51,608 nt of DNA from Bacteroidia bacterium (GCA_030427935.1 JAUICI010000010.1:1-51608), one strand, 5' to 3'. Shown: positions 5,556 through 45,293, numbered from the stretch's first letter. Notes: generated by a model not told the origin, from the sequence alone. A program made the numbers and translations.

Positions 5556-6167
5556 ATGAAAGAATTTTGGGACAAACGATACGCTGAAAAAGATTGGGCT
5601 TACGGTAAGGAACCTAATGAGTTTCTGAAAAGTAGCATTCAAGAATTTGAGCCGGGAAAAGCGCTTTTTCCAGCTGAAGGTGAAGGTCGAAACGCTGTAT
5701 ATGCAGGTAGTTTAGGATGGGATGTTTCTGCCTTCGACATGAGCGTAAGTGGCCGTAAAAAAGCACTTCAACTTGCAAATGAAAAAACTGTAAGAATTGA
5801 TTATCAAGTCGGTGATTTAATGAGCATGGTATATCCCGAAAACTATTTTGATCTGCTGGTTTTGATATTTGTCCATTTTCCTCCCCAATTGCGCAGTGGT
5901 TATCACAAAAATTTGCTTCAGTTTGTTAAACCAGGAGGAAAAGTAATCTTGGAAGGATTCAGCAAAAAACATTTGGAATTTAGTTCGAAAAACCCAAAAG
6001 CTGGTGGTCCACCAAATATTGACATGCTCTTCTCCATTGAGGAAATCAAAGAAGATTTTAGTGATTTGAATATTGAATTACTGGAAGAGAATGAGGTCGA
6101 GATGAACGAAGGACTTTATCATGTAGGGAAAAGCTCCGTTATTCGTCTAATTGGTACAAAAAACTAG
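5556..6167 (+). CDS. Class I SAM-dependent methyltransferase (TehB/TPMT-like)
   Basis: 203 aa, glycine-rich SAM-binding region ALFPAEGEGRNAVYAGSLGWDVSAFDMS. Confidence 0.6.
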   Translation: MKEFWDKRYAEKDWAYGKEPNEFLKSSIQEFEPGKALFPAEGEGRNAVYAGSLGWDVSAFDMSVSGRKKALQLANEKTVRIDYQVGDLMSMVYPENYFDLLVLIFVHFPPQLRSGYHKNLLQFVKPGGKVILEGFSKKHLEFSSKNPKAGGPPNIDMLFSIEEIKEDFSDLNIELLEENEVEMNEGLYHVGKSSVIRLIGTKN

Positions 6168-6172
6168 CACTT

Positions 6173-6553
6173 ATGAAATCGATATTGGGCATCTTTTTAT
6201 CAATGGTTTGGATCTCTATCATGGAGTTTAGCCGAAACGAAACTTTTCTCAAGCACTATTGGACCAATCATTACGGCGATATGGGATTAACTTTCCCATC
6301 TGAACCGATAAATGGTGCTATTTGGGGAATTTGGGCTTTGTGTTTCTCGATTGGATTGTTCTATTTATCCAAAAAATTCAATTTTCTAGAAACTTGCTTA
6401 TTGGGCTGGTTATTTGGATTTGTGCTCATGTGGTTGGTAACAGGAAATATGGGAGTATTACCTTATGAGCTACTCCTTTTTGCAGTTCCTTTAAGTATGA
6501 TCGAAGTGATTGGAGCCGTTTGGATCATCCGAAAACTAAATCCAAAAACTTAG
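6173..6553 (+). CDS. Small integral membrane protein, hypothetical
   Basis: 126 aa, 3-4 predicted TM helices. Confidence 0.4.
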   Translation: MKSILGIFLSMVWISIMEFSRNETFLKHYWTNHYGDMGLTFPSEPINGAIWGIWALCFSIGLFYLSKKFNFLETCLLGWLFGFVLMWLVTGNMGVLPYELLLFAVPLSMIEVIGAVWIIRKLNPKT

Positions 6554-31289: not shown

Positions 31290-31399
31290 AACCTACAAAG
31301 ATCCACCTCAAGAACGCAATCTTTTTGCGCAATCAACTTTATTTGAAAATTTGAGAAAATAAAGCAACTATTCCTTGTAAGTTTCGTTTTCCCAATGCA

Positions 31400-31427
31400 G
31401 ATTCGCAGAAAATTTTGCGAACGAATC
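31400..31427. promoter_or_regulatory. Imperfect palindrome / dyad element (CGCA-N8-TGCG family)
   Basis: GATTCGCAGAAAATTTTGCGAACGAATC. Nested arms GATTCG/CGAATC and TTCGCA/TGCGAA. Confidence 0.25.
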
Positions 31428-31433
31428 CAGAAA

Positions 31434-31562
31434 ATGGAAACAATTAGAAATGAACATATCAAGCATTGTGCATCCTTACGCCCGCAAGGCAGTAAGATGA
31501 TATCGAAATTTTATCAGCTAGATGAAATCACGGACAAAGAATGCTTGATCTCGACACGATAA
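31434..31562 (+). CDS. Possible small ORF (42 aa), speculative
   Basis: ATG...TAA frame METIRNEHIKHCASLRPQGSKMISKFYQLDEITDKECLISTR, followed about 30 nt later by a strong terminator. No homology evidence. Confidence 0.15.
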   Translation: METIRNEHIKHCASLRPQGSKMISKFYQLDEITDKECLISTR

Positions 31563-31592
31563 TAGAGAATACTCTACATAAGATATTGTGAA

Positions 31593-31620
31593 CCCGGTCA
31601 GCATTTGATCGGGTTTTTTT
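31593..31620 (+). terminator. Strong rho-independent terminator
   Basis: CCCGGTCA-gcatt-TGATCGGG followed by T7. Confidence 0.6.
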
Positions 31621-31654
31621 GTGCCCAAAATTTTAAATGAATTTTTAGGATAGT

Positions 31655-31860
31655 GCTTGCTCGCTTAGAAAAGGCATTCACACGGGAGGGTGAAATAGTG
31701 TGGTCGACTTAGTCGATTTTCAGGGACCGAAATTCATTTATTGGAAATGCAAGCAGATAGGTGACTGCACCGCTCTTGAAAAGCGACGATCTTAACAGAC
31801 TTGGGGGTTCGAACTTAGCGTAGCGATCTCATGAGACGCTAGTCGAGTACTCCCCCCGTT
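31655..31860. other. GC-rich structured non-coding patch immediately 3' of the WYL-PhyH gene (minus strand); candidate 3' element or small RNA
   Basis: GGGGG...CCCCCC enclosing near-perfect palindrome TAGCG-A-TCTCATGAGA-CGCTA and palindromic GTTCGAAC. Shares motifs with patch 14750-15010. Confidence 0.25.
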
Positions 31861-31864
31861 TCCG

Positions 31865-33601
31865 CTAAATCAATTCAGGTAATTTCTCTGCCTCTGCCCA
31901 TTTGAGTTCTTTGGGCAGTTTGGCTGAGGAAAACTCGAGATGAATGACTCTTCTCTTTTTGGGTTTTTTACTTTTAGCTGAAGCATGCAGAATAAGCGGC
32001 TTCATCAAATGGATACCCCCTGTTTCAACTTCACATAAAACTGGAATACTATTTTCTGCAATCATCATGATCTCTTCCGAAGACAATTGCTTCTTATGTG
32101 AACCCGGAATGACCTTCAAAGCCCCATTTTCTTCGTGAGCTGGATCTAAGTGAATCCGAATAGAAAATGTCTGCTGATTGATCTCTTCTGGTGGTCGAAC
32201 ACTGATAATTCCATCCTTGTTTGTCCAACCAGAATACCCCTCCACCTTCACTTTTTTCTTCACATTAATAGGGACGTCTTGATGCATGGTGACATACCAA
32301 TTGTCTTCATCTGTTTTATTGAAATAAATGGCTTTGACCAGTTTGACTTTGGGGTCAATTTTAGTAATGATCTCAAGTAAATTTTTATTGAAAATGAATT
32401 TCTTCAAATCTGGTATTTCTTTGAGAATGGCCCGAATCGCGTAAGGCTTTTTGAGCTGTTTTTCTTTAAAATAATTATTCAGCAAGGGGGCCATTTTATT
32501 GATTTCGCGATTTGTATAGACGTTATTCATCAAAGCAAAACCACGATGTTCGAGTTGCTTGGAACTCTTTTCAATATTTTTAGTCGAAAGTACCGTTCGA
32601 TAATTATCCTGTGCCCATTGAAGTCTTTGTTCAATGTTTCTTTTCAATTTTTCAGGCTGGATGACACGCATCACTTCACCATAACTTAAAATCTCTTTTT
32701 CCAATTCAAAATTATGTTGAACATCCAGAGAGATTGTAACTCCATAATAATCCTTATCAATCACTTTCTGACTCGAATGCAAAGGTTTCGTGATCACATA
32801 GGGTGCATGTTTATGGGTAATGAACAGTTTGACTTTCTCTGTTGGCATTGTCGGCGATACGGATACTCCAATGGCATTTTGAAAATAGGTTTGTGGGTCA
32901 AAATCTAAATTATGGACAAACTTCGCCTCAGATTTTTCAAGGCTAATGATTCGGTCTAGAGCCAAATTCATCAGTTGGGCATCCTTTTTCTTTTTCCCAA
33001 TTACAAACCATCTATTTCTGAATTCTTTCAGTAAATAAGGATGAAAATCAAAACTATTGGCTTGCCTTGCTTTAAAGGATTGATAGGTAATCAAAATCGG
33101 ACGATAATTAATAATTGCTTGATACAATTCATCCAAGAAATCCAATCCTTTCAAGTTTTCATTCTTTTCAAAATCAATCACAGGCATTTGATCCGTTTGC
33201 TGACTATGCACATGATCCTCCAATTTTTGAACCATGGAGTCCAATTCCCTGAAATGAGAAAATCCTTTAAACTGTTTTAAGAACTCCACTGCTTCCGTAA
33301 GTTTACTCAAATCCTGATCTGAAATCGGAATATTGGTAATAGAATAATCCGGATCTTCATATGTATAAAAACGCTTATCGACTACAATGATGGGTGCATT
33401 ATAACCCAATTTATCCGATCTCATGATTTGAATATCCCCTTGAACTGTTCTTCGACTTACCCCTTTATCAATTCCTTCATATTCATATAAGGCATCTGAA
33501 CACGCATCAATCAAATCTTCCAAAGTCCATTTACGAAAGCGGTTCTGTAGACATTTATCAATGGTTTTATATCGGATTAAAGCATTCTTATTAACGGCCA
33601 T
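31865..33601 (-). CDS. Fusion protein: N-terminal HTH + WYL-domain regulator, C-terminal PhyH-like 2OG-Fe(II) dioxygenase
   Basis: N-terminus MAVNKNALIRYKTIDKCLQNRFRKWTLEDLIDACSDAL... and NRWFVIGKKKKDAQLMNLALDRIISLE (WYL-type motif) match the abundant Bacteroidota WYL-regulator family. C-terminal approx 250 aa has dioxygenase motifs MHQDVP (HxD), IHLDPAHEENGALKVIPGSHK, IHLMKPLILHAS. Start trimmed to the internal Met at 33601. Confidence 0.7.
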   Translation of the reverse strand: MAVNKNALIRYKTIDKCLQNRFRKWTLEDLIDACSDALYEYEGIDKGVSRRTVQGDIQIMRSDKLGYNAPIIVVDKRFYTYEDPDYSITNIPISDQDLSKLTEAVEFLKQFKGFSHFRELDSMVQKLEDHVHSQQTDQMPVIDFEKNENLKGLDFLDELYQAIINYRPILITYQSFKARQANSFDFHPYLLKEFRNRWFVIGKKKKDAQLMNLALDRIISLEKSEAKFVHNLDFDPQTYFQNAIGVSVSPTMPTEKVKLFITHKHAPYVITKPLHSSQKVIDKDYYGVTISLDVQHNFELEKEILSYGEVMRVIQPEKLKRNIEQRLQWAQDNYRTVLSTKNIEKSSKQLEHRGFALMNNVYTNREINKMAPLLNNYFKEKQLKKPYAIRAILKEIPDLKKFIFNKNLLEIITKIDPKVKLVKAIYFNKTDEDNWYVTMHQDVPINVKKKVKVEGYSGWTNKDGIISVRPPEEINQQTFSIRIHLDPAHEENGALKVIPGSHKKQLSSEEIMMIAENSIPVLCEVETGGIHLMKPLILHASAKSKKPKKRRVIHLEFSSAKLPKELKWAEAEKLPELI

Positions 33602-33638
33602 TTCAAAAAATTTTAAATAAAAATACAAGAAATATTTC

Positions 33639-33662
33639 ACTACGCAAATAGGCTGCGCACAA
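33639..33662. promoter_or_regulatory. Dyad motif ACTACGCAAATAGGCTGCGCACAA (CGCA-N7-TGCG family), about 40 nt upstream of the WYL-PhyH gene and 125 nt upstream of tRNA-Tyr
   Basis: One of three near-identical 24-nt motifs (others at 38933 and 40228). Confidence 0.35.
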
Positions 33663-33786
33663 TCTAAATTACTTTGCTTCATCGTTCATTGATAAACAGA
33701 ATGAGAAACAGAAAGAGAATGAGCATTATTAATTAACAATCAACACAAATCTCTCATTCTTCGCTCTGTTTCTCATTCTGACAACA

Positions 33787-33870
33787 GGGGGTGCGCCAAC
33801 GTTGGAGAGTTGGGCTGGACTGTAAATCCAGTGGCTTAAGCCTGAATAGGTTCGATTCCTATCACCCCCA
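33787..33870 (+). tRNA. tRNA-Tyr (anticodon GTA), class II
   Basis: Manual fold: acceptor GGGGGTG/CACCCCC, anticodon stem CTGGA/TCCAG with loop CTGTAAA, variable hairpin GGCTTAAGCC, T-arm ATAGGTTCGATTCCTAT. Confidence 0.7.
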
Positions 33871-33935
33871 CGGAGGCAGAGTGAGTGCGGAGTGTGAGAA
33901 TGAGGGTATCTCATTCCGGTTCTCATTCTGACAAA

Positions 33936-34008
33936 GGAGAAGTAGCAAAGCTGGTCTATGCGTCCCGCTGAAAACGGGAAGATAATGGTTCGACTCCATT
34001 CTTTTCCA
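33936..34008 (+). tRNA. tRNA-Phe (anticodon GAA)
   Basis: Acceptor GGAGAAG/CTTTTCC (one G-U), anticodon stem TCCCG/CGGGA with loop CTGAAAA, T-arm AATGGTTCGACTCCATT. Confidence 0.65.
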
Positions 34009-34023
34009 CAGGTAGATTTTTAG

Positions 34024-34112
34024 AGAAGAGTAAGTCCATAATTGGTATTGGCGCACCCTGCTAAGGTGTTCATCACTTTGGTGGTGTGAGGGTTCGAATC
34101 CCTCCTCTTCTG
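34024..34112 (+). tRNA. tRNA-Ser (anticodon GCT), class II
   Basis: Acceptor AGAAGAG/CTCTTCT, anticodon loop CTGCTAA, long variable arm CATCAC/GTGGTG, T-arm GAGGGTTCGAATCCCTC, discriminator G. D-arm irregular. Confidence 0.6.
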
Positions 34113-34127
34113 CTCAAAAATTTAGAT

Positions 34128-34200
34128 GCAATTGTAGCTTAACGGGTTGAGCACCGGTCTTTTAAATCGGGGGTAGTAGGTTCGAGCCCTACCAGTTGCA
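34128..34200 (+). tRNA. tRNA-Lys (anticodon TTT)
   Basis: Acceptor GCAATTG/CAGTTGC, D-arm GCTTAACGGGTTGAGC, anticodon stem CCGGT/ATCGG with loop CTTTTAA, T-arm GTAGGTTCGAGCCCTAC. Confidence 0.7.
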
Positions 34201-34387
34201 CAGTAGTAGAGCGAGAATACAGAACGAGAATGAGAATCTTCATTCTACTTCTGCTCCTCATTCTGCAAAAGATCTTCATCCGAAAAGTCGGAGAAGCGCG
34301 GAAAGAAGCCAAATTCTGAAGACCTGATCTGTGTGTTGAAGCACAGAGGTATTCGCTTGGTAAAGTTGAATATGCCGATTCATTATT

Positions 34388-34553
34388 TAGCTGTCTTTCT
34401 CTTGACGGTATAGGTCAGAGGTTCGAATCCTCTCATAGCTAGGACTATGTAGCTCAGTTGGGTAGAGCAATATCACAATCGCGCGGGTTCGAATCCCGCC
34501 ACGCTTAAGGTGCGTGTAGCTCAGTTGGTCAGAGCACTAGACTGTAAATCTAG
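34388..34553 (+). pseudogene. Three consecutive degenerate tRNA-like fragments, none with a complete cloverleaf
   Basis: 34388-34441: acceptor, T-arm (AGAGGTTCGAATCCTCT) and CATAGCT but no anticodon arm. 34442-34507: D-arm TAGCTCAGTTGGGTAGAGCA joined directly to T-arm GCGGGTTCGAATCCCGC. 34509-34553: acceptor, canonical D-arm and anticodon arm CTAGA-CTGTAAA-TCTAG (GTA, Tyr-like) with no T-arm. The 3' strand of each unit is complementary to the 5' start of the next (CATAG/CTATG, CACGC/GCGTG). Confidence 0.4.
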
Positions 34554-34842
34554 TATCGTTAAGAAGTTGATCTCTTCAGAAAAGGATCACCAATAAATCA
34601 AGTAGCGCAGGTCTGTTGCGTAGTTTCTTCGGAAACCATGAAACAGCTTTTAGCCTGCCCTGAGTCAGAACAAGATTTGAAAACAAGTTTTGTTTCGAAA
34701 GCCAAACTCTGAAGGGGGGAAATTTTTCAGATAAGGTTGGGAAAACAAAACTCCTTTGATAGTCGCCTTCTGTCTCCGCCGATTAGGAGCGACTTGGTTG
34801 CTTGATTTGTTTTTGAATTAGTAATTATTAAACCTGTCAAAT

Positions 34843-35946
34843 ATGACTTATGTTAGAATCAACAAAGGAAACATCGGGTTGGTTTTCCGATATGGAGACC
34901 TTGTCGATGTGGTGAAGCCAGGACTTCACTGGATTGGATGGAACGACCGAGTAACATCCTACAATGTATATCAACCATTTACTTCGCCTTACAAGGATGA
35001 AGTTTTGCTTGAACACCCTAAATTCAAAGCAATGGTGGATATTGTAGAAGTACGAGACAATGAAATCGCCCTTCGATTTGAGAACGGCTATTTTAAGGGT
35101 GTTTTGAAAACAGGAAAGTACATTTTCTGGAAGGGATTTGTGGACTATGAATTCAAAATCTTGGATACTTCAAGTACGAAAGTCATCCAGAATGAATACA
35201 TCAATAAAATCCAGGATACCGTGATTACAAGTCTCGTTAAAATGTTTCATTTGGAAGAGTATGAAAAAGGATTGCTCTTTGTTGACGGGCATTTCATGCG
35301 AACATTGCCATCTGGACGCTACAGATTCTGGAAAAACAAAACGCCAATTGAATTGGTCAAAGTGGATACAAGAAAACAGCAAATGGAGGTTTCTGGTCAA
35401 GAAATTTTAACGAAAGACAAGGCTTCCATTCGAGTAAGTTTCTTCATCCATTTCCAAGTCAAAGACGTGAAGAAAGCGATCTTGGAAAACAAAAGTTATG
35501 CAGATCAACTCTATATGTTGATGCAATTTGCCTTGAGAGAGTTCATTGGAACATTGACTTTGGACGAATTGCTTGAAAAGAAAAATGAGATCGGAAAATA
35601 CGTGATGAGCAAATCCGAGAAAAAGGCTGAAGAGCTTGGGGTGGAATTGCAAAATGCCGGAATCCGTGATATTATTCTTCCAGGTGATGTGAAAGAGATC
35701 ATGAATCAAGTTCTTGTTGCTCAGAAAAGAGCTCAAGCAAATATCATCACAAGAAGAGAGGAGACTGCGTCTACCAGAAGTTTGCTTAATACAGCAAAAC
35801 TGATGGAAGATAATGCCATGCTTTTCAAGTTGAAAGAAATGGAATACATGGAAAAAATTGCCGAAAAGATTGGAGAAGTTACCGTAAAAGGAGATGGATC
35901 CACTTTGGAACAATTGACCGATATTTTCATTTCGAAAAAGAAATAA
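34843..35946 (+). CDS. SPFH/Band-7 (stomatin/flotillin-like) domain protein
   Basis: SPFH-like core in the C-terminal half (EILTKDKASIRVSFFIHFQVKDV...), N-terminal beta-rich extension. Confidence 0.75.
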   Translation: MTYVRINKGNIGLVFRYGDLVDVVKPGLHWIGWNDRVTSYNVYQPFTSPYKDEVLLEHPKFKAMVDIVEVRDNEIALRFENGYFKGVLKTGKYIFWKGFVDYEFKILDTSSTKVIQNEYINKIQDTVITSLVKMFHLEEYEKGLLFVDGHFMRTLPSGRYRFWKNKTPIELVKVDTRKQQMEVSGQEILTKDKASIRVSFFIHFQVKDVKKAILENKSYADQLYMLMQFALREFIGTLTLDELLEKKNEIGKYVMSKSEKKAEELGVELQNAGIRDIILPGDVKEIMNQVLVAQKRAQANIITRREETASTRSLLNTAKLMEDNAMLFKLKEMEYMEKIAEKIGEVTVKGDGSTLEQLTDIFISKKK

Positions 35947-35989
35947 AGTTCTACCTGAGGTGATGACCTTGGGTGGAATTTTAAATTTT

Positions 35990-36008
35990 CCCTATACGAA
36001 GTATAGGG
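35990..36008. terminator. Hairpin after the SPFH gene
   Basis: CCCTATAC-gaa-GTATAGGG. No clean U-tract. Confidence 0.4.
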
Positions 36009-36374
36009 GCAAAAAAGTCGAAAATTTTTCTTGCGATTGTAAAATTTTACTGCTTATCTTTGTCCTCGATAACGCTCTTCAAAAAGTATTCACTTTTTAA
36101 AACTGAGCAATTATGATGTTATTTAGTCTACATATCAAAAAAGCGATCGGGAAAAGCTAGACGGCTAGTCTGGACTTCAAAATATTCATCCTGATCCATG
36201 TGATTGGGATTTTTTTTGTCCTAAGATTTCGACCCGTTCGAAACATCACATCATGCTGGAGCCTCTTGAAGGGCCCCCAGCGAGTTTATCATTTTTTTAT
36301 TGAGACTGAATTTTGAAAGTATTCAATCTTCAGTCAGGCATTCTTAGCACTAAGTATGCTCAAATTTTTATGCT

Positions 36375-37778
36375 ATGGGCAAACAGAAATTAAAAGGAAA
36401 AGACCTAAAAAAAATTGGGTTTCGTTCCGATAAAGCAAAGAGTCTAGCCATCAATATCATGGCGACTCATTTTAAACATTTACATAGAGTTAAAAAGCTC
36501 GAATTATTAGAAAAATTAATTGAAAATCCGGAAGACTACGCAGAGGATAAGTACTTAAAACCTCTGGCGGAAGAGTTCATGGAAAAAGTGGTTAAGGAAA
36601 CATTCACAAGTTATAAACTTAGGTATGATTCCAAGCCTTATAAGGTTTACGGGAAACAATTCATCTGCCGAAACACGATCAACCAAATGGATCAGGCCAT
36701 GCGACTCCCGGTTGCTGAAAAAGGCGCCCTAATGCCAGACGCTCATGTTGGATACGGGCTTCCCATCGGGGGAGTTTTGGCGACAAAAAATGAAGTAATT
36801 CCTTATGCGGTTGGACTCGATATTGGTTGCAGAATGTCAGTTACCTTATTTGATGTGGAATCCGATAGAATTGATCGAGATCGTTACCAGCTAAAAATGG
36901 CTTTGCAAGAAGAAACGCAGTTTGGAATCAGCAAAGTAGTAGCCGGTAATGCCGAACATTCCGTATTGGATCGGCCAGAATTCCATGCAACTGAAGTTCT
37001 AAGAAAACTTCATGGAAAAGCAGCCATGCAGTTAGGTTCCTCAGGAGCAGGAAACCACTTCGTTGAATTTGGCGAAATGGAGATTTTAGAAGAAAACAGT
37101 CTGAATATTCCTGCTGGAAAATACATGGCCTTGGTTTCGCATTCGGGAAGTCGAGGGCTCGGAGCAGCGGTTGCGCAGTATTATACAAGAATTGCACAAG
37201 AAGTCTGTAAACTTCCAAAAGGTAGCCAGCATTTGGCTTGGTTGGATCTCGACTCGGAAGCTGGAATGGAGTATTGGCTTGCCATGAATTTGGCAGGTGA
37301 TTATGCAAAAGCTTGTCACGATGTCATTCATTCAAAAATTGCGAAAAGGTTGAATCTAAAAAAGCTGATTACGGTTGAAAACCACCACAATTTCGCCTGG
37401 AAAGAAAAACAGGAAAATGGTGAAACACTAATCGTTCATAGAAAAGGTTCGACACCAGCGAAGGAGGGAGAATTGGGATTTATTCCTGGCTCGATGTCGC
37501 ATTCAGGCTATTTAGTTTCCGGAAAAGGAAAACAAGACGCACTCTGTTCTGCCAGTCATGGTGCCGGCAGAAAATTATCGCGATCCAAGGCTAAATCTAG
37601 CTTAACTGGATCGGACATGAAAAAAGAATTGAAACAAAAACGGGTCACCCTAATCGGTGGCGCAGTGGATGAATCGCCTTTTGCTTATAAAAATATAGAA
37701 GAGGTTATCGGGGCTCAAAAGGAGCTCATCAAAGTTGAAGGCCAATTCAATCCACGAATAGTACGAATGGCAAAATAG
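36375..37778 (+). CDS. rtcB: RtcB-family RNA ligase (PrfH-associated paralog, N-terminal about 70 aa extension)
   Basis: RtcB motifs DAHVGYGLPIGG, SSGAGNHFVEFG, SASHGAGRK. Confidence 0.85.
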   Translation: MGKQKLKGKDLKKIGFRSDKAKSLAINIMATHFKHLHRVKKLELLEKLIENPEDYAEDKYLKPLAEEFMEKVVKETFTSYKLRYDSKPYKVYGKQFICRNTINQMDQAMRLPVAEKGALMPDAHVGYGLPIGGVLATKNEVIPYAVGLDIGCRMSVTLFDVESDRIDRDRYQLKMALQEETQFGISKVVAGNAEHSVLDRPEFHATEVLRKLHGKAAMQLGSSGAGNHFVEFGEMEILEENSLNIPAGKYMALVSHSGSRGLGAAVAQYYTRIAQEVCKLPKGSQHLAWLDLDSEAGMEYWLAMNLAGDYAKACHDVIHSKIAKRLNLKKLITVENHHNFAWKEKQENGETLIVHRKGSTPAKEGELGFIPGSMSHSGYLVSGKGKQDALCSASHGAGRKLSRSKAKSSLTGSDMKKELKQKRVTLIGGAVDESPFAYKNIEEVIGAQKELIKVEGQFNPRIVRMAK

Positions 37779-37784
37779 AATAAA

Positions 37785-38417
37785 ATGAAAGAATTTATAG
37801 TACAGATCAGTGCAGGAACAGGCCCGGCCGAATGTTGTTGGGTCGTTTCCAAAACACTAAAGGAATTTATGAAAGAAGCACGTGATCAAAGTATTGAAAT
37901 TGACGAAATAGGGAGATTAAAAGGTGATCAGAATGGTACATTAAAGTCCGTTTCACTATTTATAAAGGGAATGCGAGTTGACCAGTTTCTAGAAGAGTGG
38001 ACAGGTTCGATTCAATGGATAGGCAAAAGTCCTTTTCGAAAATTCCACAAAAGGAAAAACTGGTTTATTGGAATTCAAACTTTTGATTCCAAATCTGAAC
38101 CCAATTTCGATTCCAAAACGATCAAGTTTGAAACCTTTAGATCATCTGGACCCGGAGGTCAGTTCGTGAACAAAGTTGAAACCGCTGTAAGAGCGATTCA
38201 CATTCCAACTAAACTTTCGGTCACAGCTAGCGAAACAGCCTCGCAATCGATGAATAAAAAGATTGCCATAGGAAAATTGAAAACAAAATTAGATGAATAC
38301 AAAATGCAGAATTTGGTTCTTTTAAACTCGAACAAATGGATTGCCAACAAACAAGTGAAAAGAGGAAATCCAACTCGAGTTTATGAAGGAGACAAATTCA
38401 GACTAAAACAAAAATAA
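37785..38417 (+). CDS. prfH: Peptide chain release factor H-like protein (class I RF catalytic domain only)
   Basis: 210 aa with GGQ motif (SSGPGGQFVNKVETAVRAIHIPT) and no codon-recognition domain. Immediately downstream of rtcB, as in the known rtcB-prfH pair. Confidence 0.75.
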   Translation: MKEFIVQISAGTGPAECCWVVSKTLKEFMKEARDQSIEIDEIGRLKGDQNGTLKSVSLFIKGMRVDQFLEEWTGSIQWIGKSPFRKFHKRKNWFIGIQTFDSKSEPNFDSKTIKFETFRSSGPGGQFVNKVETAVRAIHIPTKLSVTASETASQSMNKKIAIGKLKTKLDEYKMQNLVLLNSNKWIANKQVKRGNPTRVYEGDKFRLKQK

Positions 38418-38418
38418 A

Positions 38419-38925
38419 ATGGACACTGCATTGGCAAACAACTATTACTTAAAGGCTTTGGATAATTATCCTTACGACCTAACTGAGTTTTTGGAGGCCA
38501 TAAACTATGCCCTTGCTTACGATGAAGATCACGCAGATGCTCATTGTTTGATGGGATTATTTTATATGGATCAACTTCAAAAATTCGATGATGCCAAATA
38601 TCATTTCAATAAAGCTTTGGCTTCGGATCTTGATAATCTGAAGGCTTATTATTCTTTGATTAGATGTTTAATTGCAACTGAAGAATACGCACAAGCTTTT
38701 AAAGTGATTGAGCATGCGCAAAAGGTCAAAGGCATTTCTTCAGAGGCCTTGGATCATAGAATTGCTATCATCATGGAAAGAAAACTTCAGTTTAGATCCG
38801 CCAAGAAATTTTTAAAGAGAGCGATCGAAAAGTCTTATTTCACAAGTGATAGAGAGTTTTATGAATCCGAATTATCAAGAGTAAAAGACAAAATTTCGAA
38901 AAGAAAATCGAAAAAAAATAAATAA
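38419..38925 (+). CDS. Small TPR-like helical-repeat protein, hypothetical
   Basis: 168 aa. Start is 1 nt after the prfH stop, likely same operon. Confidence 0.4.
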   Translation: MDTALANNYYLKALDNYPYDLTEFLEAINYALAYDEDHADAHCLMGLFYMDQLQKFDDAKYHFNKALASDLDNLKAYYSLIRCLIATEEYAQAFKVIEHAQKVKGISSEALDHRIAIIMERKLQFRSAKKFLKRAIEKSYFTSDREFYESELSRVKDKISKRKSKKNK

Positions 38926-38932
38926 TTTTTTT

Positions 38933-38956
38933 ACAACGCAAAAAGACTGCGCACTA
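38933..38956. promoter_or_regulatory. Dyad motif ACAACGCAAAAAGACTGCGCACTA (CGCA-N7-TGCG family)
   Basis: Second copy of the 24-nt motif, preceded by a T-run, directly after the TPR gene and upstream of the second tRNA array. Confidence 0.35.
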
Positions 38957-38995
38957 GCTCTTTTACTTTGAATCATCATTAAGAACAAAAGACAT

Positions 38996-39027
38996 CCCCC
39001 TCTGTCAAAAATAGATTAGGCAGAGGG
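38996..39027 (+). terminator. Hairpin CCCCTCTG-(16 nt)-CAGAGGGG
   Basis: 8-bp GC-rich stem followed by TTTAAAAAAA. Confidence 0.4.
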
Positions 39028-39162
39028 GTTTAAAAAAACAAAAAATGAACAGATTGAATTTACATATCACATTACCAAATCGACTGGATCTCCAGCCGAA
39101 TCATGATGAATTCTATTCAATCGGGAAGCCATATTTTTAGATGCGAGTAAGCGTTACGACTA

Positions 39163-39199
39163 AAAAGCCTTCTTGATGAATTTCAAGAAGGCTTTTTTA
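39163..39199. terminator. Bidirectional rho-independent terminator
   Basis: A5-GCCTTCTTGA-(6 nt)-TCAAGAAGGC-T6, perfect 10-bp stem. Confidence 0.6.
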
Positions 39200-39202
39200 T
39201 TT

Positions 39203-39274
39203 CTAGGGGGATAACGATGGCTGTTTGCCTACCTTGGACGTAGGAGGTTGTAGGTTCGAATCCTACCCCTTAGA
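39203..39274 (+). tRNA. tRNA-Pro (anticodon TGG), atypical D-arm
   Basis: Acceptor CTAGGGG/CCCTTAG, anticodon stem CCTAC/GTAGG with loop CTTGGAC, T-arm GTAGGTTCGAATCCTAC. D-stem only about 3 bp. Confidence 0.55.
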
Positions 39275-39353
39275 CAGTATTGAGCAAGAGTGAAGAGCAA
39301 GGGTTTTGAGGGATTTATTCCTGTTGCTCTTGCACTCAACTCAACACTCAATC

Positions 39354-39424
39354 GGTTCTGTAGTTTAATGGTAAAATGCCTGACTGTCTATCAGGTGTCG
39401 AGGGTTCGATTCCCTTCAGAACCG
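39354..39424 (+). tRNA. tRNA-Asp (anticodon GTC)
   Basis: Acceptor GGTTCTG/CAGAACC, D-arm GTTTAATGGTAAAAT, anticodon stem CCTGA/TCAGG with loop CTGTCTA, T-arm GAGGGTTCGATTCCCTT. Confidence 0.7.
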
Positions 39425-39446
39425 CAAAACACAAGAGTGAATGTGA

Positions 39447-39471
39447 AGTCCCGATAGCTATCGGGAGAGAG
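39447..39471. repeat. Palindromic spacer element AGTCCCGATAGCTATCGGGAGAGAG (copy 1)
   Basis: Perfect 18-nt palindrome TCCCGATAGCTATCGGGA. About 60 nt of flank is also shared with copy 2. Confidence 0.6.
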
Positions 39472-39514
39472 CGATGCAATTTCCTAACTCTCCACACTCG
39501 CACTCACTCTGATA

Positions 39515-39587
39515 ATGGGGTATAGTTCAATGGAACAGAACAGCTGAATACGAATCAGCAGATGTGGGTTCGACTCCTGCTACCCCA
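39515..39587 (+). tRNA. tRNA-Arg (anticodon ACG)
   Basis: Acceptor TGGGGTA/TACCCCA, D-arm GTTC-AATGGAACA-GAAC, anticodon stem GCTGA/TCAGC with loop ATACGAA, T-arm GTGGGTTCGACTCCTGC. Confidence 0.65.
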
Positions 39588-39662
39588 ACTAAATAAAGTG
39601 AGTTTGGAGAGCGAGAGTGATGATGTGTCCGCATTCTTCACTCTCACACTCGCTCTATAACC

Positions 39663-39736
39663 GCGGGGATGGCGGAATTGGTATACGCGCCTGACTTAGA
39701 ATCAGGATTTTGAGAGTTCGAGTCTCTCTCCCCGTA
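39663..39736 (+). tRNA. tRNA-like with Leu anticodon TAG but only a 5-nt variable loop (class-I shape)
   Basis: Acceptor GCGGGGA/TCCCCGT, Leu-type D-arm GCG-GAATTGGTATA-CGC, anticodon stem CCTGA/TCAGG with loop CTTAGAA, variable ATTTT, T-arm GAGAGTTCGAGTCTCTC, discriminator A. Confidence 0.5.
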
Positions 39737-39815
39737 CTATTTGAGTAGAGAACAAGAGTAAAGAGTTCCGAGGGCGGACTTCCTCATGCTCGAAACCCTC
39801 TACTCTTGAACCCAT

Positions 39816-39889
39816 GCCCCACTAGTCCAATTGGCAGAGACAAAGGACTTAAACTCCTTCCAGTCCAGGTTCGAGTCCTGGGTGGGGTA
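39816..39889 (+). tRNA. tRNA-like with Leu anticodon TAA but only a 5-nt variable loop (class-I shape)
   Basis: Acceptor GCCCCAC/GTGGGGT, D-arm GTC-CAATTGGCAGA-GAC, anticodon stem AAGGA/TCCTT with loop CTTAAAC, variable CCAGT, T-arm CCAGGTTCGAGTCCTGG, discriminator A. Confidence 0.5.
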
Positions 39890-39909
39890 CTTGTTTAGAG
39901 TGCGTGTGG

Positions 39910-39934
39910 AGTCCCGATAGCTATCGGGAGAGAG
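39910..39934. repeat. Palindromic spacer element AGTCCCGATAGCTATCGGGAGAGAG (copy 2)
   Basis: Identical 25-nt core to 39447-39471. Confidence 0.6.
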
Positions 39935-39971
39935 TGAGGTGATTTCCTCGCTCTTCACTTTCGGTCCCACT

Positions 39972-40044
39972 CTAGATTTATGGTGTTTCTAGTTTAACAG
40001 GTAAAATACCTCACTGTGAATGAGGAGAAAAGGGTTCGAGTCCC
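39972..40044 (+). tRNA. tRNA-His (anticodon GTG)
   Basis: Extra 5' G (G-1) opposite C73, D-arm GTTT-AACAGGTA-AAAT, anticodon stem CCTCA/TGAGG with loop CTGTGAA. T-stem only about 3-4 bp (AAGGG / CCCGG). Exact ends uncertain by 1 nt. Confidence 0.5.
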
Positions 40045-40125
40045 GGAAACACCCAAAGAAGTGCAAAGTTTGAGTGATCAATATAGAGGTTCTTCAATTT
40101 GTTCACTCAAACGACACAATGAAAA

Positions 40126-40196
40126 TGCTTTGTCGTCTAGTGGCAGGACACTTCACTTTGACTGAAGAGACGGTGGTTCGAATCCATCCAAAGCAA
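40126..40196 (+). tRNA. tRNA-Gln (anticodon TTG)
   Basis: Acceptor TGCTTTG/CAAAGCA (U1:A72 as in Gln tRNAs), D-arm GTCT-AGTGGCA-GGAC, anticodon stem CTTCA/TGAAG with loop CTTTGAC, T-arm GGTGGTTCGAATCCATC. Confidence 0.65.
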
Positions 40197-40227
40197 CAGA
40201 TAAGTTGAATTTTTAAATTTTTATTTT

Positions 40228-40251
40228 ACTACGCAAATACTTTGCGTATAA
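40228..40251. promoter_or_regulatory. Dyad motif ACTACGCAAATACTTTGCGTATAA (CGCA-N7-TGCG family), about 100 nt upstream of the second rtcB
   Basis: Third copy of the 24-nt motif. Perfect 8-bp inverted repeat TACGCAAA/TTTGCGTA. Confidence 0.35.
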
Positions 40252-40285
40252 GAGGTTTTACTTTGAAATATAAATGAAATAAACG

Positions 40286-40323
40286 CCCGAGGATCACCTT
40301 AGAAATCAGACATGGATCCTCGG
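40286..40323. promoter_or_regulatory. Stable hairpin in the rtcB leader
   Basis: CCCGAGGATC-(18 nt)-GATCCTCGGG, perfect 10-bp stem ending 29 nt before the ATG at 40352. Confidence 0.4.
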
Positions 40324-40351
40324 GTAAATAAAAAACTTAAATTTAGAAATT

Positions 40352-41512
40352 ATGAAAAATGTTGTTAGCACAGAGAGAATTCCAATCAAATTGTGGTTGG
40401 AAGATTTAGAGGCTGAAGCTTTATCTCAAGCTAAGAATTTGGCGAATTTACCATTTGCCTATAAGCATATTCCAATCATGCCAGATTCGCACACCGGATA
40501 TGGGATGCCAATTGGTTCAATTTTGGCGACGAAAGGAGCTGTGATCCCAAATGCCGTAGGTGTAGATATTGGTTGTGGTATGTGCGCACAAAAGACGAGT
40601 TTAACTGAGATCTCAACCGATGAGATCAAGAAAGTTTTGGGAATCGCCAGAAACTTAATTCCTCTTGGATTTAATTCTCATGACGAAAAACAAGACGAAA
40701 AGTACATGCCACAAGGATGGGAAGACCTTGAAATTGTCTCGAGAGGGTATTTGAAAGCGAGAAAGCAGGTGGGAACACTTGGTGGAGGAAACCATTTTAT
40801 TGAACTACAAAAAGGTGATGACGGATTTATCTGGGTCATGATTCATTCAGGTTCAAGAAACTTGGGTCATACCGTTGCCAGCCATTACAACCGAGTGGCA
40901 AAGAAAATGAATGAGAAATTTCATTCTGTAGTGACTCCAAAAATGGATTTGGCCTTCTTCCCAATTGAAATGAGAGAGGCCAAAGATTATATGAATGAAA
41001 TGAAATACTGTGTGGAATTTGCTTTGGCGAATAGAAAGTTAATGATGTTGAGAATGATGGAAGCTTTGACCGAAGTAAAAGGTTCATTTGAAACGGATGA
41101 GATCATCAATGAATCGCACAACTTCGCGGCATGGGAGAACCATTTTGGTGCCAATGTATTGGTTCACAGAAAAGGTGCAACCAGAGCTTATGAAGGAGAA
41201 CTTGGAATGATTCCAGGGTCTCAAGGAACCAAATCCTATATTGTAAAAGGACTTGGAAACCCAGAAAGTTTCATGTCTTGTTCGCATGGTGCAGGTAGAA
41301 AAATGGGTAGAAAACAAGCCCAAAGATCGCTTGACTTAGAACATGAAAGAAAGTTTTTGGACGACCAAAACATCGTTCATGCAATCAGACATACAAAAGA
41401 TTTGGATGAAGCCTCATCAGCTTATAAAGACATTCATGAGGTGATGGGAAATCAAACAGATCTTGCGGAGATTGTGGTTGAATTACAACCATTAGGAGTA
41501 TTGAAAGGGTAG
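40352..41512 (+). CDS. rtcB: RtcB-family RNA ligase (second copy, compact 386 aa form)
   Basis: DSHTGYGMPIGS, LGGGNHFIELQ, SCSHGAGRKMGR. Confidence 0.85.
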   Translation: MKNVVSTERIPIKLWLEDLEAEALSQAKNLANLPFAYKHIPIMPDSHTGYGMPIGSILATKGAVIPNAVGVDIGCGMCAQKTSLTEISTDEIKKVLGIARNLIPLGFNSHDEKQDEKYMPQGWEDLEIVSRGYLKARKQVGTLGGGNHFIELQKGDDGFIWVMIHSGSRNLGHTVASHYNRVAKKMNEKFHSVVTPKMDLAFFPIEMREAKDYMNEMKYCVEFALANRKLMMLRMMEALTEVKGSFETDEIINESHNFAAWENHFGANVLVHRKGATRAYEGELGMIPGSQGTKSYIVKGLGNPESFMSCSHGAGRKMGRKQAQRSLDLEHERKFLDDQNIVHAIRHTKDLDEASSAYKDIHEVMGNQTDLAEIVVELQPLGVLKG

Positions 41513-43640: not shown

Positions 43641-45284
43641 ATGAACAACCAAAAATCAGAGCCATTCAAGATTGGCTTGTGTATGGCGGGAGCTGTTTCC
43701 GCCGGAGCTTATACGGCTGGAGTGATGGATTACCTTATCGAAGCACTTGACGAATGGGAAAAACAGAAAAAAGAAAATCCAGAAACTACCCCACTTCATG
43801 ATGTTGTGATTCCCGTAATGGGAGGAGCTTCAGCTGGGGGAATGACGAGCATCATCGCTTCTAATGCCTTGCAGCAAGAAATCGATCCTGTGAGAAGCAT
43901 GGCAGATATTGAAAATGGGCGCAAACGCAATAAACTCTTTAATGCTTGGGTCAATTTGAGTCGGGAAGACATGTTTCCTGAATTGTTGAAAACGGATGAT
44001 TTAGAGGACGGAAAAGTGGAGTCCCTTTTCAATGCAAAGTTCATCGATGAGATTGCTCAAAACACCTTAAAGTCAAATGAGGATTTAGAGTATGTAAAAC
44101 GAAACTATATTGCGGAAAATCTGAAGGTTTTTACCACGCTGACCAACCTCAACGGCATCAAGTTCAAACAGGAATTCATGGCAGATTCTGACAATTCGAG
44201 TTACCACATTTCCAAACATTCGGATTTTGCCTGTTTTGAGATTAACGCGAATCAGTACAAGGGTAAGGGTTGGATACCACTTGATTTCAGGGATGAGAAA
44301 CAGCGGAAACTAGCAATCGATTCTGCCATGGCTACTGGTGCGTTTCCGATTGGACTTCAAGCTCGTAAAGTAGTACGACCAAGTCAATATGTGGCTGATT
44401 CCATTTTTCACGATGATGTAGAAATGGATGTAAGCAGGCCAGATTTCGAGACTTTAAATATTGACGGAGGTACCATCAATAATGAGCCTTATGAAAAAGT
44501 GCAAAAAGTCTTGGCCAATGGTGGTGAATTAGAAAAATCATACAGTAAAGCCACTTCCACCGTTTTAATGATCGATCCTTTTCCGAGTGAAGAACCTCCG
44601 GTTGATCGCATGGATGATCAAGTTGGAAGTGTGATTTCGGCAACGCTTTCTGCCATGGTGAATCATCTTAGATTTGAACCGAAAAGTATCAGCGATAGTA
44701 AAGATCCGGATGATGCCAGTGTCTATTTAATTGCACCGGTTCGCTATGAAAAGGACAAAAGTATTGAAGGAAAAAAGGCTATTGCTTGCGGATTTTTCAA
44801 TGGTTTTGGTGGCTTTATCCATAAAGATTTCAGACTGCATGACTATTTTCTTGGTCGCGCCAATTGTGAGAAATTTCTTAGACAGTATTTCACGATTCCG
44901 GTTGAAGATCAGAACCCAATCATCCAAAAGGGTTATGCCCACTTAAAAGACGACTCCGATTTTGTGGTTACCAATAACTCAACTAAAAAGGGACGAAAAG
45001 AATATCCAATTATCCCACTTTTTAAAGAAGAAGGTGATTTGTATTTACCTCCTTTCAAAAATGGAAGCTGGCCAAGTATCTATTCGAAAGAAGTCGATCG
45101 TTTTAAGCCTAAATTGAAAAAGCGTTTTGCAAAAATCATTCTGAATATTGGCAAATTCAAACCTCAGACCAAAGCAGCACTTTGGATTGGAACCCATTTA
45201 ATACTGAAAAACATGGCTGCGAAAAAATTCCTGGATTTGATTAAGAAGGATATGGAAGATTGGAAATTGCTGGAAAAAAAGTAG
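43641..45284 (+). CDS. Patatin-like phospholipase (PNPLA) with about 200-aa C-terminal extension
   Basis: Gly-rich N-terminal loop GLCMAGAVSAGAYTAG, nucleophile elbow GGASAGG (GxSxG), catalytic Asp in NIDGGTINNEP (DGG). Confidence 0.85.
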   Translation: MNNQKSEPFKIGLCMAGAVSAGAYTAGVMDYLIEALDEWEKQKKENPETTPLHDVVIPVMGGASAGGMTSIIASNALQQEIDPVRSMADIENGRKRNKLFNAWVNLSREDMFPELLKTDDLEDGKVESLFNAKFIDEIAQNTLKSNEDLEYVKRNYIAENLKVFTTLTNLNGIKFKQEFMADSDNSSYHISKHSDFACFEINANQYKGKGWIPLDFRDEKQRKLAIDSAMATGAFPIGLQARKVVRPSQYVADSIFHDDVEMDVSRPDFETLNIDGGTINNEPYEKVQKVLANGGELEKSYSKATSTVLMIDPFPSEEPPVDRMDDQVGSVISATLSAMVNHLRFEPKSISDSKDPDDASVYLIAPVRYEKDKSIEGKKAIACGFFNGFGGFIHKDFRLHDYFLGRANCEKFLRQYFTIPVEDQNPIIQKGYAHLKDDSDFVVTNNSTKKGRKEYPIIPLFKEEGDLYLPPFKNGSWPSIYSKEVDRFKPKLKKRFAKIILNIGKFKPQTKAALWIGTHLILKNMAAKKFLDLIKKDMEDWKLLEKK

Positions 45285-45293
45285 TTTCATACT

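Follow-up and report, generated by a model that had tools for sequence, protein, structure and literature searches.

RNA repair by RtcB ligases is known from several bacterial gene systems. Together with the release-factor homologue PrfH, RtcB forms a ribosome rescue and 16S rRNA repair pair, which acts on a cut at the 16S decoding centre and religates the rRNA (Tian et al. 2022, PMC9304027). Accretion of a TPR gene to this pair has been reported (Burroughs and Aravind 2019, PMC6514570), as has a C-terminal tail in most PrfH proteins of Flavobacteriia (PMC11741408), and in Pseudomonas aeruginosa the leader peptide PA5471.1 attenuates the armZ-PA5470(prfH) operon (PMC12057347). In Salmonella, tRNA fragments induce rtcBA through the ligand-sensing regulator RtcR in an operon with Rsr (Ro60) and YrlA/Y RNA (PMC7790460; Rfam RF02553). 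In Anabaena, the TrcR regulon contains a 26-gene tRNA array, rtcB and a slipin/SPFH gene that are co-induced by translation inhibitors (PMC8421152, PMC10272220), and that work lists Bacteroidetes among the phyla with such L-arrays. Finally, an RtcB–Band-7–'b7a-tRNA' RNA-repair system was predicted by Burroughs and Aravind (NAR 2016, 44:8525) and, according to bioRxiv 10.1101/312249, has not been validated. Here we describe a locus of a Bacteroidia bacterium that brings features of these systems together. It lies in a stretch of 51,608 nucleotides (GCA_030427935.1, JAUICI010000010.1:1-51608; hereafter the window), in which an initial annotation had described two rtcB genes, prfH, a small TPR gene and a seven-tRNA array at 36375-41512 as a possible unit for tRNA replenishment and re-ligation.

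Both rtcB genes, prfH, the TPR gene and the seven tRNAs were confirmed on the plus strand at the coordinates first given, by open reading frame (ORF) calls, ARAGORN, Rfam, Pfam and NCBIfam. The gene island is larger than that, running from about 31314 to 41512, and just upstream it contains four elements that had been overlooked: a WYL regulator, a second tRNA array, a structured RNA and an SPFH/Band-7 gene. Its order is WYL regulator, four-tRNA array A, a 330-nucleotide tRNA-mimic RNA, SPFH/Band-7, rtcB1-prfH-TPR, seven-tRNA array B and rtcB2 (Table 1). We consider it somewhat probable that the locus serves as a chromosomal island that responds when the translation machinery is damaged, and that it is composed of two nested modules. 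Replenishment and re-ligation of tRNAs, as first proposed, stays the best reading and is supported in part; its link to anticodon nucleases is circumstantial only.

The relatives used to compare gene order were found through RtcB2 homologues, and the breadth of the association was assessed in a genome sample of 80 loci fetched with RtcB1 and in a second, independent sample of 80 metagenome loci fetched with the SPFH protein. The whole order recurs in a related metagenome contig (L082), which reads WYL-PhyH, 7 tRNAs, YrlA-like RNA, Band-7, RtcB of 468 amino acids (aa), PrfH, a 171-aa ORF, 10 tRNAs and RtcB of 386 aa. The complete genome of Paracrocinitomix mangrovi (L084) reads WYL, 11 tRNAs, RNA, Band-7, a 121-aa ORF, 13 tRNAs and RtcB of 386 aa, with no rtcB1-prfH. 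A further relative (L083) has the protein genes of L082 and no tRNA genes called by ARAGORN, the unclassified bacterium SCSIO 12741 (L166) and Flexithrix (L168) have WYL-PhyH, Band-7 and the 386-aa RtcB, and in L139 the PrfH-TPR genes are convergent to SPFH-RtcB2. Judged by this gene order, the conserved core is the WYL regulator, array A, the tRNA-mimic RNA, SPFH, array B and the 386-aa RtcB; it is found from Flavobacteriales to Cytophagales, Chitinophagales and Sphingobacteriales. By the same comparison rtcB1-prfH-TPR, absent in P. mangrovi and convergent in L139, is a cassette inserted into the WYL/SPFH core. The basic unit is thus not, as first supposed, a pair of rtcB genes bracketing an array.

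The two samples extend these observations. Besides the loci with prfH, the genome sample holds a second group in which an RtcB about 50% identical occurs without prfH and with WYL and/or SPFH. Co-oriented tRNA arrays are present in 11 of the 80 genome loci, with 47 of 55 tRNAs on the rtcB strand, while in the metagenome sample all tRNAs (250/250) lie on the SPFH strand and arrays of 3-17 genes occur in 27 loci. Among the metagenome loci that extend at least 4 kb upstream, 36 of 39 hold an array or a WYL gene; among those whose downstream flank reaches 3.5 kb or more, 25 of 30 have RtcB on the SPFH strand. Conserved synteny, the recurrence of arrays beside RtcB or SPFH, and an operator and promoter common to arrays A and B and rtcB2 show that the adjacency is not due to chance, and the conservation of order in relatives that the initial annotation had asked for is found.

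The common control element is a 54-nucleotide direct repeat (family D1), present in three copies ahead of array A, array B and rtcB2. Its core is the palindrome ACGCAA-N6-TGCGYA, followed some 12-14 nucleotides downstream by TAnnTTTG, which we take to be the Bacteroidota -7 promoter box. The operator pattern ACGCAANNNNNNTGCGYA occurs at four sites in the window, compared with none in 100 shuffles; the sites start at 31314, 33642, 38936 and 40231, and all four fall inside 31314-40248. Elsewhere, the same palindrome stands beside the WYL gene or directly 5' of the RNA/SPFH, an array or RtcB in L051, L053, L059, L069, L070, L072, L078, L082-L084 and ten metagenome loci; with L001 left out, the tally is 19 other loci, among them Pedobacter, metagenome-assembled genomes of Chitinophagales and P. 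mangrovi. A sigma-70 promoter scan (23 promoters found, 27.7 expected) uses a model that is uninformative for Bacteroidota.

The WYL gene is divergent from array A, and a palindrome lies within the divergent region as well as beside its orthologues. The palindrome is thus most likely the operator of the putative WYL repressor, judging by its placement, and arrays, SPFH and rtcB2 would then form one regulon. The ORF of the regulator can be called to 33682; homologues begin at Met28 (tblastn alignments start at residues 15-28), which gives 578 aa, and by alignment position alone a helix-turn-helix domain would occupy the N terminus. The protein is also the sole match of the region in PADLOC and defence-system libraries (WYL domain, 1.6e-24). 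WYL domains bind nucleic-acid ligands. Orthologues of 577 aa with the same WYL-PhyH fusion occur in L082, L166 and L168. The PhyH-type 2-oxoglutarate/Fe(II) dioxygenase domain occupies the C terminus (residues about 350-578); it is encoded by a separate gene in L083, and the fusion is absent in P. mangrovi and Pedobacter-type loci.

Table 1 Features of the island in window coordinates.
Feature	Coordinates	Strand	Description
Operator-like palindrome O4 (ACGCAATCTTTTTGCGCA)	31314-31331	not assigned	left edge of the island, ahead of the 55-codon ORF
55-codon ORF	31395-31562		3' of operator copy O4, followed by intrinsic terminator 31590-31616; whole stretch 31395-31616
Putative HTH-WYL-WCX-PhyH regulator	31865-33601	-	578 aa; Pfam WYL 6.7e-12, WCX 4.9e-8, PhyH 1.8e-12
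Promoter/operator element 1	33625-33678	+	between the WYL gene and array A; palindrome ACGCAAATAGGCTGCGCA, -7 box TACTTTG
tRNA array A	33787-34201	+	Tyr-GTA, Phe-GAA, Ser-GCT, Lys-TTT; ARAGORN, Rfam
Structured non-coding RNA	34281-34613	+	two 5' hairpins, then two tandem circularly permuted tRNA-like modules
SPFH/Band-7 protein	34843-35946	+	367 aa; Pfam Band_7 1e-31
rtcB1 leader	36049-36221	+	-7 box, upstream ORF and intrinsic terminator, between SPFH and rtcB1
RtcB1, RNA 3'-phosphate/5'-OH ligase, PrfH partner	36375-37778	+	467 aa; Pfam RtcB at residues 104-463, E 2e-78
PrfH, GGQ release-factor homologue, short type	37785-38417	+	210 aa; NCBIfam TIGR03072
Small TPR protein, rtcB-prfH accessory	38419-38925	+	168 aa; Pfam TPR_19, E 1e-6
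Promoter/operator element 2, ahead of array B	38919-38972	+	conserved in L084 and L082
Array-B leader	39045-39197	+	upstream ORF and strong intrinsic terminator
tRNA array B	39203-40197	+	Pro-TGG, Asp-GTC, Arg-ACG, Leu-TAG, Leu-TAA, His-GTG, Gln-TTG
Promoter/operator element 3, ahead of rtcB2	40214-40267	+	perfect palindrome ACGCAAATACTTTGCGT
RtcB2	40352-41512	+	386 aa; Pfam RtcB, E 1e-108

The structured RNA between array A and the SPFH gene is composed of modules that share a T-arm, a closed acceptor-like hairpin, a D-arm and a closing or anticodon-like stem. In the first module, T-arm, closed hairpin and D-arm are enclosed by a stem, as in a circularly permuted tRNA; the second has T-arm, hairpin, D-arm and anticodon-like arm, its hairpin and D-arm being read by eye rather than from RNAalifold. 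In an alignment of eight sequences (A2) RNAalifold gives 47 pairs, for which 94.9% of cells are paired, compared with 38-46% when the partners are slid. Both sides change in 31 of the 47 pairs (5-12 in slid controls) and covariation reaches 0.624 (0.08-0.15 in slid controls). In 500 shuffles the observed values were never reached in four of five measures, and in 4 of 500 for the fifth, further pair types. The structure rests on this covariation, the fold of the single sequence being unremarkable (z = -1.6).

A profile built on positions 34403-34559 (nhmmer) finds full-length matches in exactly 11 sources, those with an SPFH protein about 50% identical, and such SPFH orthologues always adjoin the RNA, which is present in 58 of the 61 metagenome loci with enough upstream sequence. 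Rfam reports weak tRNA matches in the stretch. Matches to its YrlA family (RF02553) stay under the gathering score of 69, at 41.3 and 36.7 bits for the window and 36-43 bits for L082-L084. No TROVE/Rsr/Ro60 protein was found among the ten island and flanking ORFs scanned, and the SPFH protein, which is probably soluble, has no transmembrane segment that is obvious on reading its sequence. The permuted RNA clearly cannot be charged. Set beside the published description of the Band-7-associated tRNA-like RNA predicted in 2016, it fits that description. In L159, which has an array and no WYL gene, an AAA+ ATPase of 355 aa and a protein of 172 aa that contains the motif IGTDSQ lie between array and RNA (5675-7257), and similar gaps of 1.5-2 kb separate the two in many SPFH loci; an AAA ATPase also belongs to the Anabaena TrcR regulon.

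The seven tRNAs of array B are called by both ARAGORN and Rfam (43.6-68.3 bits, gathering score 29), and in array A only Ser-GCT is weak, with two acceptor-stem mismatches. Most array tRNAs have a full cloverleaf, a 7-nucleotide anticodon loop and isotype-specific identity elements as read from the sequence, among them G-1:C73 in His, C1:G72/A73 in Pro and A73 in Leu, Lys, Phe and Tyr, which suggests that they can be charged. As previously noticed, the two tRNAs with Leu anticodons are atypical: Leu-TAG and Leu-TAA are both 75 nucleotides long with a 5-nucleotide variable loop, and are class-I-like rather than of the class-II form of bacterial tRNA-Leu. Leu-TAG (39663-39737) shares 88% identity along its whole length with a tRNA-Leu from the tRNA cluster carried by T5-like Vibrio phages (Demerecviridae); with the Leu-TAG that occupies its array position in L082 and L084 it shares just 57-60%. 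Overall, tRNAs of the same anticodon in these three islands are 52-90% identical.

The most complete set, in P. mangrovi, counts 24 tRNAs, near one per codon box: U34 tRNAs for Ala, Thr, Gly, Val, Pro, Ser and Leu-CUN, together with Arg-ACG, Arg-TCT, tRNAs for two-codon boxes, Ile-GAT and Ile-TAT. The window retains 11 of these with their relative order unchanged. Its tRNAs are thus a reduced form of a near-complete set, and not a selected group of Asp, His and Arg tRNAs as had been supposed. Among close relatives the island holds 0, 11, 17 or 24 tRNAs, so that the host cannot depend on them; given this variation and the atypical structures, we infer that they are accessory, spare copies. Several odd members were observed, including a 69-nucleotide tRNA-Trp with reduced D-arm in L084, a Pro-like tRNA with a truncated anticodon loop and a recurring Ile-UAU (L084 4677-4745, 8561-8632 and 9497-9571; L082 9692-9765). 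tRNA-Ile(UAU), which few bacteria have, would make lysidine unnecessary.

Retention in the reduced arrays is not random. Across the 80 metagenome loci Lys (27), Phe (27), Gln (23), Asn (19), His (17), Arg-ACG (16), Glu (16) and Ile (15) are kept most often, and Gly (4), Val (4), Ala (1) and Thr (1) are scarce. Known targets of anticodon nucleases are Lys for PrrC, Tyr, His, Asn and Asp for colicin E5, Arg for colicin D, and Glu, Lys and Gln for zymocin and PaT. Except for Phe and Ile the retained isotypes largely match these targets, which ties the arrays to anticodon nucleases only circumstantially.

The arrays also differ in their spacing. The short arrays of the window (4 + 7 genes) have six spacers of 71-91 nucleotides in array B, all hairpins, compared with 4-8 nucleotides for most spacers in the relatives with 17 and 24 tRNAs; metagenome arrays reach up to 17 genes. 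All inter-tRNA spacers here (33690-33786, 33872-33935, 34202-34275 and six within 39276-40125) are hairpins of 64-97 nucleotides whose 5' arm is rich in purines and whose 3' arm is rich in pyrimidines, with z-scores from -2.3 to -7.6 (-3.2 to -7.6 in array A). Two of them are 81% identical and have in common a perfect 18-nucleotide palindrome, TCCCGATAGCTATCGGGA. These hairpins may mark sites of RNase III-type processing or represent a repeat element that was inserted.

In the embedded cassette, the gaps of 6 nucleotides between rtcB1 and prfH and of 1 nucleotide between prfH and the TPR gene fit a single operon, as had been proposed. PrfH scores 229 bits against TIGR03072 (cut-off 166.65), with the profile spanning residues 6-205 of 210; its GGQ motif sits in SGPGGQ and it lacks a C-terminal tail of the CgPrfH type. 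RtcB1 has an N-terminal extension of about 100 aa, and neither RtcB1 (145.9 bits) nor RtcB2 (153.1 bits) passes the cut-off of 271.8 for TIGR03073, the family of PrfH-linked RtcB. By these scores the PrfH partner belongs to a distinct, N-terminally extended Bacteroidota clade outside TIGR03073. Both ligases carry the motifs DIGC, GNHF, HSGSR, HNFA and SHGAGR in translation, which we take, from known RtcB structures, to be metal-binding and GMP-histidine sites. In the genome sample prfH lies directly 3' of the RtcB1 orthologue in 33 of 80 loci, 6 of which also have the TPR gene; TPR homologues follow prfH in L003, L004, L007, L017, L058, L081, L082 and L083. The TPR protein had been held to be outside the described pair, which overlooks the accretion already reported (PMC6514570).

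Between SPFH and rtcB1 lies a leader with the layout of an attenuator. After a -7 box (TATCTTTG, at about 36052-36060) come an upstream ORF (uORF) of 15 codons (36113-36160, MMLFSLHIKKAIGKS) and an intrinsic terminator found by terminator scan (36188-36217, stem and T8). The uORF bases GATCGGGA, which end 6 nucleotides ahead of the stop codon, are complementary to the 5' arm of the terminator. The block is kept 5' of rtcB1-prfH in L082, L083, L002, L004 and L009, and an anti-terminator is predicted at all six loci by folds that end before the terminator 3' arm, with compensatory changes in the pairs (GATCGGGA:TCCCGATC, GATTGGGA:TCCCAATC and GACCGGG:CCCGGTC). Shorter leaders with a uORF and a T-run were observed in L024-L026 (Sphingobacterium, Mucilaginibacter).

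A similar design precedes array B, in the order operator/promoter, hairpin, a uORF of 31-37 codons with (Leu/Ile)-His-Ile at codons 6-8, and terminator. In the window the uORF has 31 codons (39045-39140, Leu-His-Ile at codons 6-8) and the terminator (39162-39197) ends 5 nucleotides before tRNA-Pro. The uORF and terminator are conserved in two relatives only, L084 and L082, with the terminator within about 18 nucleotides of the array, and there the last uORF codons pair with the terminator 5' arm (TCAGGAA:TTCCTGA in L084, TATGGAA:TTCCATA in L082). Both leaders thus carry hallmarks of attenuators in their predicted pairings, at six loci with compensatory changes for rtcB1 and at three loci for array B, and the array-B leader suggests attenuation of a tRNA operon. 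To our knowledge array B would be the first tRNA operon under leader-peptide attenuation, and we know of no earlier description of a uORF-terminator design ahead of a tRNA array. No uORF leaders were found 5' of arrays in the soil metagenome loci. Recurrent matches beginning 'MIKELSVFHV...' were considered as leader peptides and rejected, being the C terminus of a 140-aa ORF.

RtcB2, at the right end of the island, is highly conserved in Bacteroidota, its orthologues being 72-81% identical across orders and 78-81% among the window, L082 and L084. In this lineage the WYL/SPFH core has RtcB2 as its ligase. Sites equivalent to its operator lie just 5' of the 386-aa RtcB in L083 (9943) and L084 (9900). 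The 5' leader of rtcB2 (40268-40351) has a hairpin with a stem of about 10 base pairs (cccgaggatc...gatcctcggg) and no T-run, as well as a two-codon mini-ORF.

Based on these observations, we propose the following model. The divergent WYL regulator would govern, via the palindromic operator, separate promoters for array A with the tRNA-mimic RNA and SPFH, for array B, for RtcB2 and possibly for the small ORF at the left edge. The arrays would be supernumerary and fast-evolving, a phage-tRNA-like remnant of the near-complete minimal set of 24 tRNAs. When resident tRNAs are cut or translation fails, the spare tRNAs would be made and decoding restored, while RtcB2 would reseal cut tRNAs bearing 2',3'-cyclic-phosphate and 5'-OH ends. 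A scaffold of SPFH and the tRNA-mimic RNA may help RtcB2, as Ro60 does with Y RNA, and the embedded RtcB1-PrfH-TPR module would handle damaged ribosomes (PMC9304027, PMC6514570).

In the leaders, a ribosome that finishes the uORF would mask the anti-terminator segment, and formation of the terminator would then keep the genes silent. With ribosomes stalled or absent, the anti-terminator would persist and transcription would read through. As a more speculative extension, which we find possible and on balance doubtful, uORF-attenuators before the spare tRNAs and the ribosome-rescue operon would sense how well the cell translates a short uORF, one with a conserved His-Ile pair at codons 7-8, beneath a WYL repressor that senses damaged RNA. 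Failed decoding would then induce the replacement tRNAs, the ribonucleoprotein of SPFH and tRNA-mimic RNA, and the two ligases, and restored decoding, helped by the island tRNA-His among others, would shut the system off, in a self-correcting loop widespread in Bacteroidota.

Several observations weigh against such a response island. Its functional statements are all inferred from sequence and comparison, and near the island there is no toxin gene or other pointer to a damaging agent. The core occurs with few or no tRNAs in L083, L166, L168 and many Pedobacter-type loci, which indicates that the arrays are dispensable for core function. The class-I-like Leu tRNAs and the doubtful Ser-GCT might not be chargeable. 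The arrays are taken to be supernumerary from their varying number and atypical structures, and solo tRNAs, few in number in the flanks, have diverged as well, which blurs the contrast in rate between solo and array tRNAs. No operator is present upstream of rtcB1, and the cassette may thus be controlled independently of WYL. The array-B attenuator is seen in three sequences only, and the anti-terminator pairing of the window itself is weaker (bulged).

The alternative that survives best is that the island tRNAs and the tRNA-mimic RNA are not for translation and serve as cofactors, decoys or sensors: decoys would sequester anticodon nucleases, cleavage products would act as a signal for WYL, and the RNAs would, with SPFH, scaffold broken RNAs to RtcB. 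A Ro/Y RNA-like scaffold has been proposed for Band-7 and tRNA-like RNA (Burroughs and Aravind, as quoted in 10.1101/312249), and the Anabaena authors raised a 'sponge' role and, among the subset of tRNAs tested, reported cleavage of array tRNAs only (PMC8421152). The permuted RNA that is clearly not chargeable and the atypical members (Leu without long variable arm, the 69-nucleotide Trp, the truncated anticodon loop in L084) also agree with such a role. So does the binding of nucleic-acid ligands by WYL domains. However, most array tRNAs keep cloverleaf, 7-nucleotide anticodon loop and identity elements, and in their complete form they make up a coherent minimal set for decoding, one tRNA for each codon box; a translational function predicts such a set, and a decoy has no need of one. 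Similar short Leu tRNAs are, moreover, part of phage tRNA sets that are presumed to be translational. We regard a purely non-translational role as unlikely.

It is quite improbable that the arrays are a horizontally acquired, phage-derived tRNA islet for codon-usage supplementation, with an incidental link to RNA repair. The 88% identity of Leu-TAG to a Demerecviridae tRNA-Leu, the minimalist U34/Ile-UAU make-up resembling phage sets and the fast turnover of gene content agree with such an origin, but the WYL operator is common to arrays, rtcB2 and SPFH, and the order array, RNA, SPFH, RtcB is conserved over several orders. In the island and the sequence directly beside it no mobility genes were noticed, and GC content is flat over the whole window, with no anomaly that would point to recent transfer. 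For the SPFH protein, the single phage match is partial, with 23% identity in a 1.4-kb fragment; a phage origin of the whole island was rejected, the array DNA matching phages through single tRNAs only. That a routine housekeeping tRNA operon merely lies between two unrelated rtcB genes, as the frequent clustering of tRNA genes and a region without integrase or compositional anomaly might suggest, is very improbable and largely refuted by the common operator/promoter of the arrays and rtcB2, the order kept in L082 and L084 while tRNA content runs from 0 to 24, the co-orientation of tRNAs in two independent samples (250/250 and 47/55), the atypical tRNA structures, and the uORF and terminator leader before the array.

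The left neighbour of the island is a housekeeping murF-alr fusion, as read from the translation. The regulon may extend to the small 55-codon ORF at the left edge, whose membership in the island is uncertain. A patatin-like phospholipase and a 960-aa TPR-CHAT protein lie 3' of the island (43641-48176); a TPR-CHAT gene also occurs about 9 kb downstream of RtcB in P. mangrovi, and nothing ties the TPR-CHAT and patatin genes to the island.

If a response island to translation damage is the correct reading, the cell gauges its own translation capacity and answers with replacement and repair of both tRNA and rRNA. The island joins three questions in one apparently co-regulated unit: which substrates RtcB has in the cell, what purpose long tRNA arrays serve, and whether a Band-7-associated tRNA-like RNA exists. 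Its control elements, a palindromic operator and two uORF-terminator leaders, are explicit and can be mutated, and culturable carriers include Paracrocinitomix mangrovi, Flexithrix dorotheae, Roseivirga seohaensis and several Pedobacter species.

Among the described systems, the core resembles the predicted b7a-tRNA system, in which, as summarised in 10.1101/312249, RtcB adjoins Band-7/SPFH together with a non-coding RNA that is tRNA-like, and YrlA-like RNAs sometimes accompany Band-7. Here, too, a tRNA-like non-coding RNA stands beside Band-7, and the Band-7 gene is followed by RtcB in relatives and has RtcB on its strand in 25 of 30 metagenome loci. With the Salmonella Rsr-YrlA-RtcBA operon the island shares a non-coding RNA with a tRNA-like domain encoded beside RtcB; in contrast to it, the ten ORFs scanned include no TROVE/Rsr, the YrlA score is 36-43 bits instead of 69, there are two tRNA-like modules, and the regulator is of the WYL rather than the CARF/sigma-54 RtcR type.

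The embedded cassette agrees with the RtcB2-PrfH module (PMC9304027, PMC6514570) in having a PrfH equivalog with GGQ, 6 nucleotides after rtcB, and a TPR gene next to it. It differs in that RtcB1 fails TIGR03073 (146 bits compared with 271.8) and in being embedded in another repair island, behind a predicted uORF attenuator; its tail-less PrfH is unlike most of those in Flavobacteriia (PMC11741408). As with PA5471.1 of P. aeruginosa, a short uORF and then a terminator stand ahead of a prfH operon, with induction on ribosome stalling proposed, but peptide and RNA are unrelated and the design of the island also precedes a tRNA array.

The nearest functional parallel, for an island known from sequence alone, is the Anabaena L-array/TrcR regulon, which combines a near-complete extra tRNA set with rtcB and slipin/SPFH, much as is proposed for the island. 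The Anabaena genes are dispersed over megaplasmid and chromosome, and are controlled by an RHH repressor with direct repeats. The island, on the other hand, is one physical locus with a WYL-family regulator, a palindromic operator, a tRNA-mimic RNA, leader-peptide terminators and short arrays (4 + 7). Each component has thus been described previously; what appears to be new is their fusion into one operator-linked Bacteroidota island, the dual tRNA-mimic RNA, and the leader-peptide terminators before rtcB-prfH and the tRNA array.

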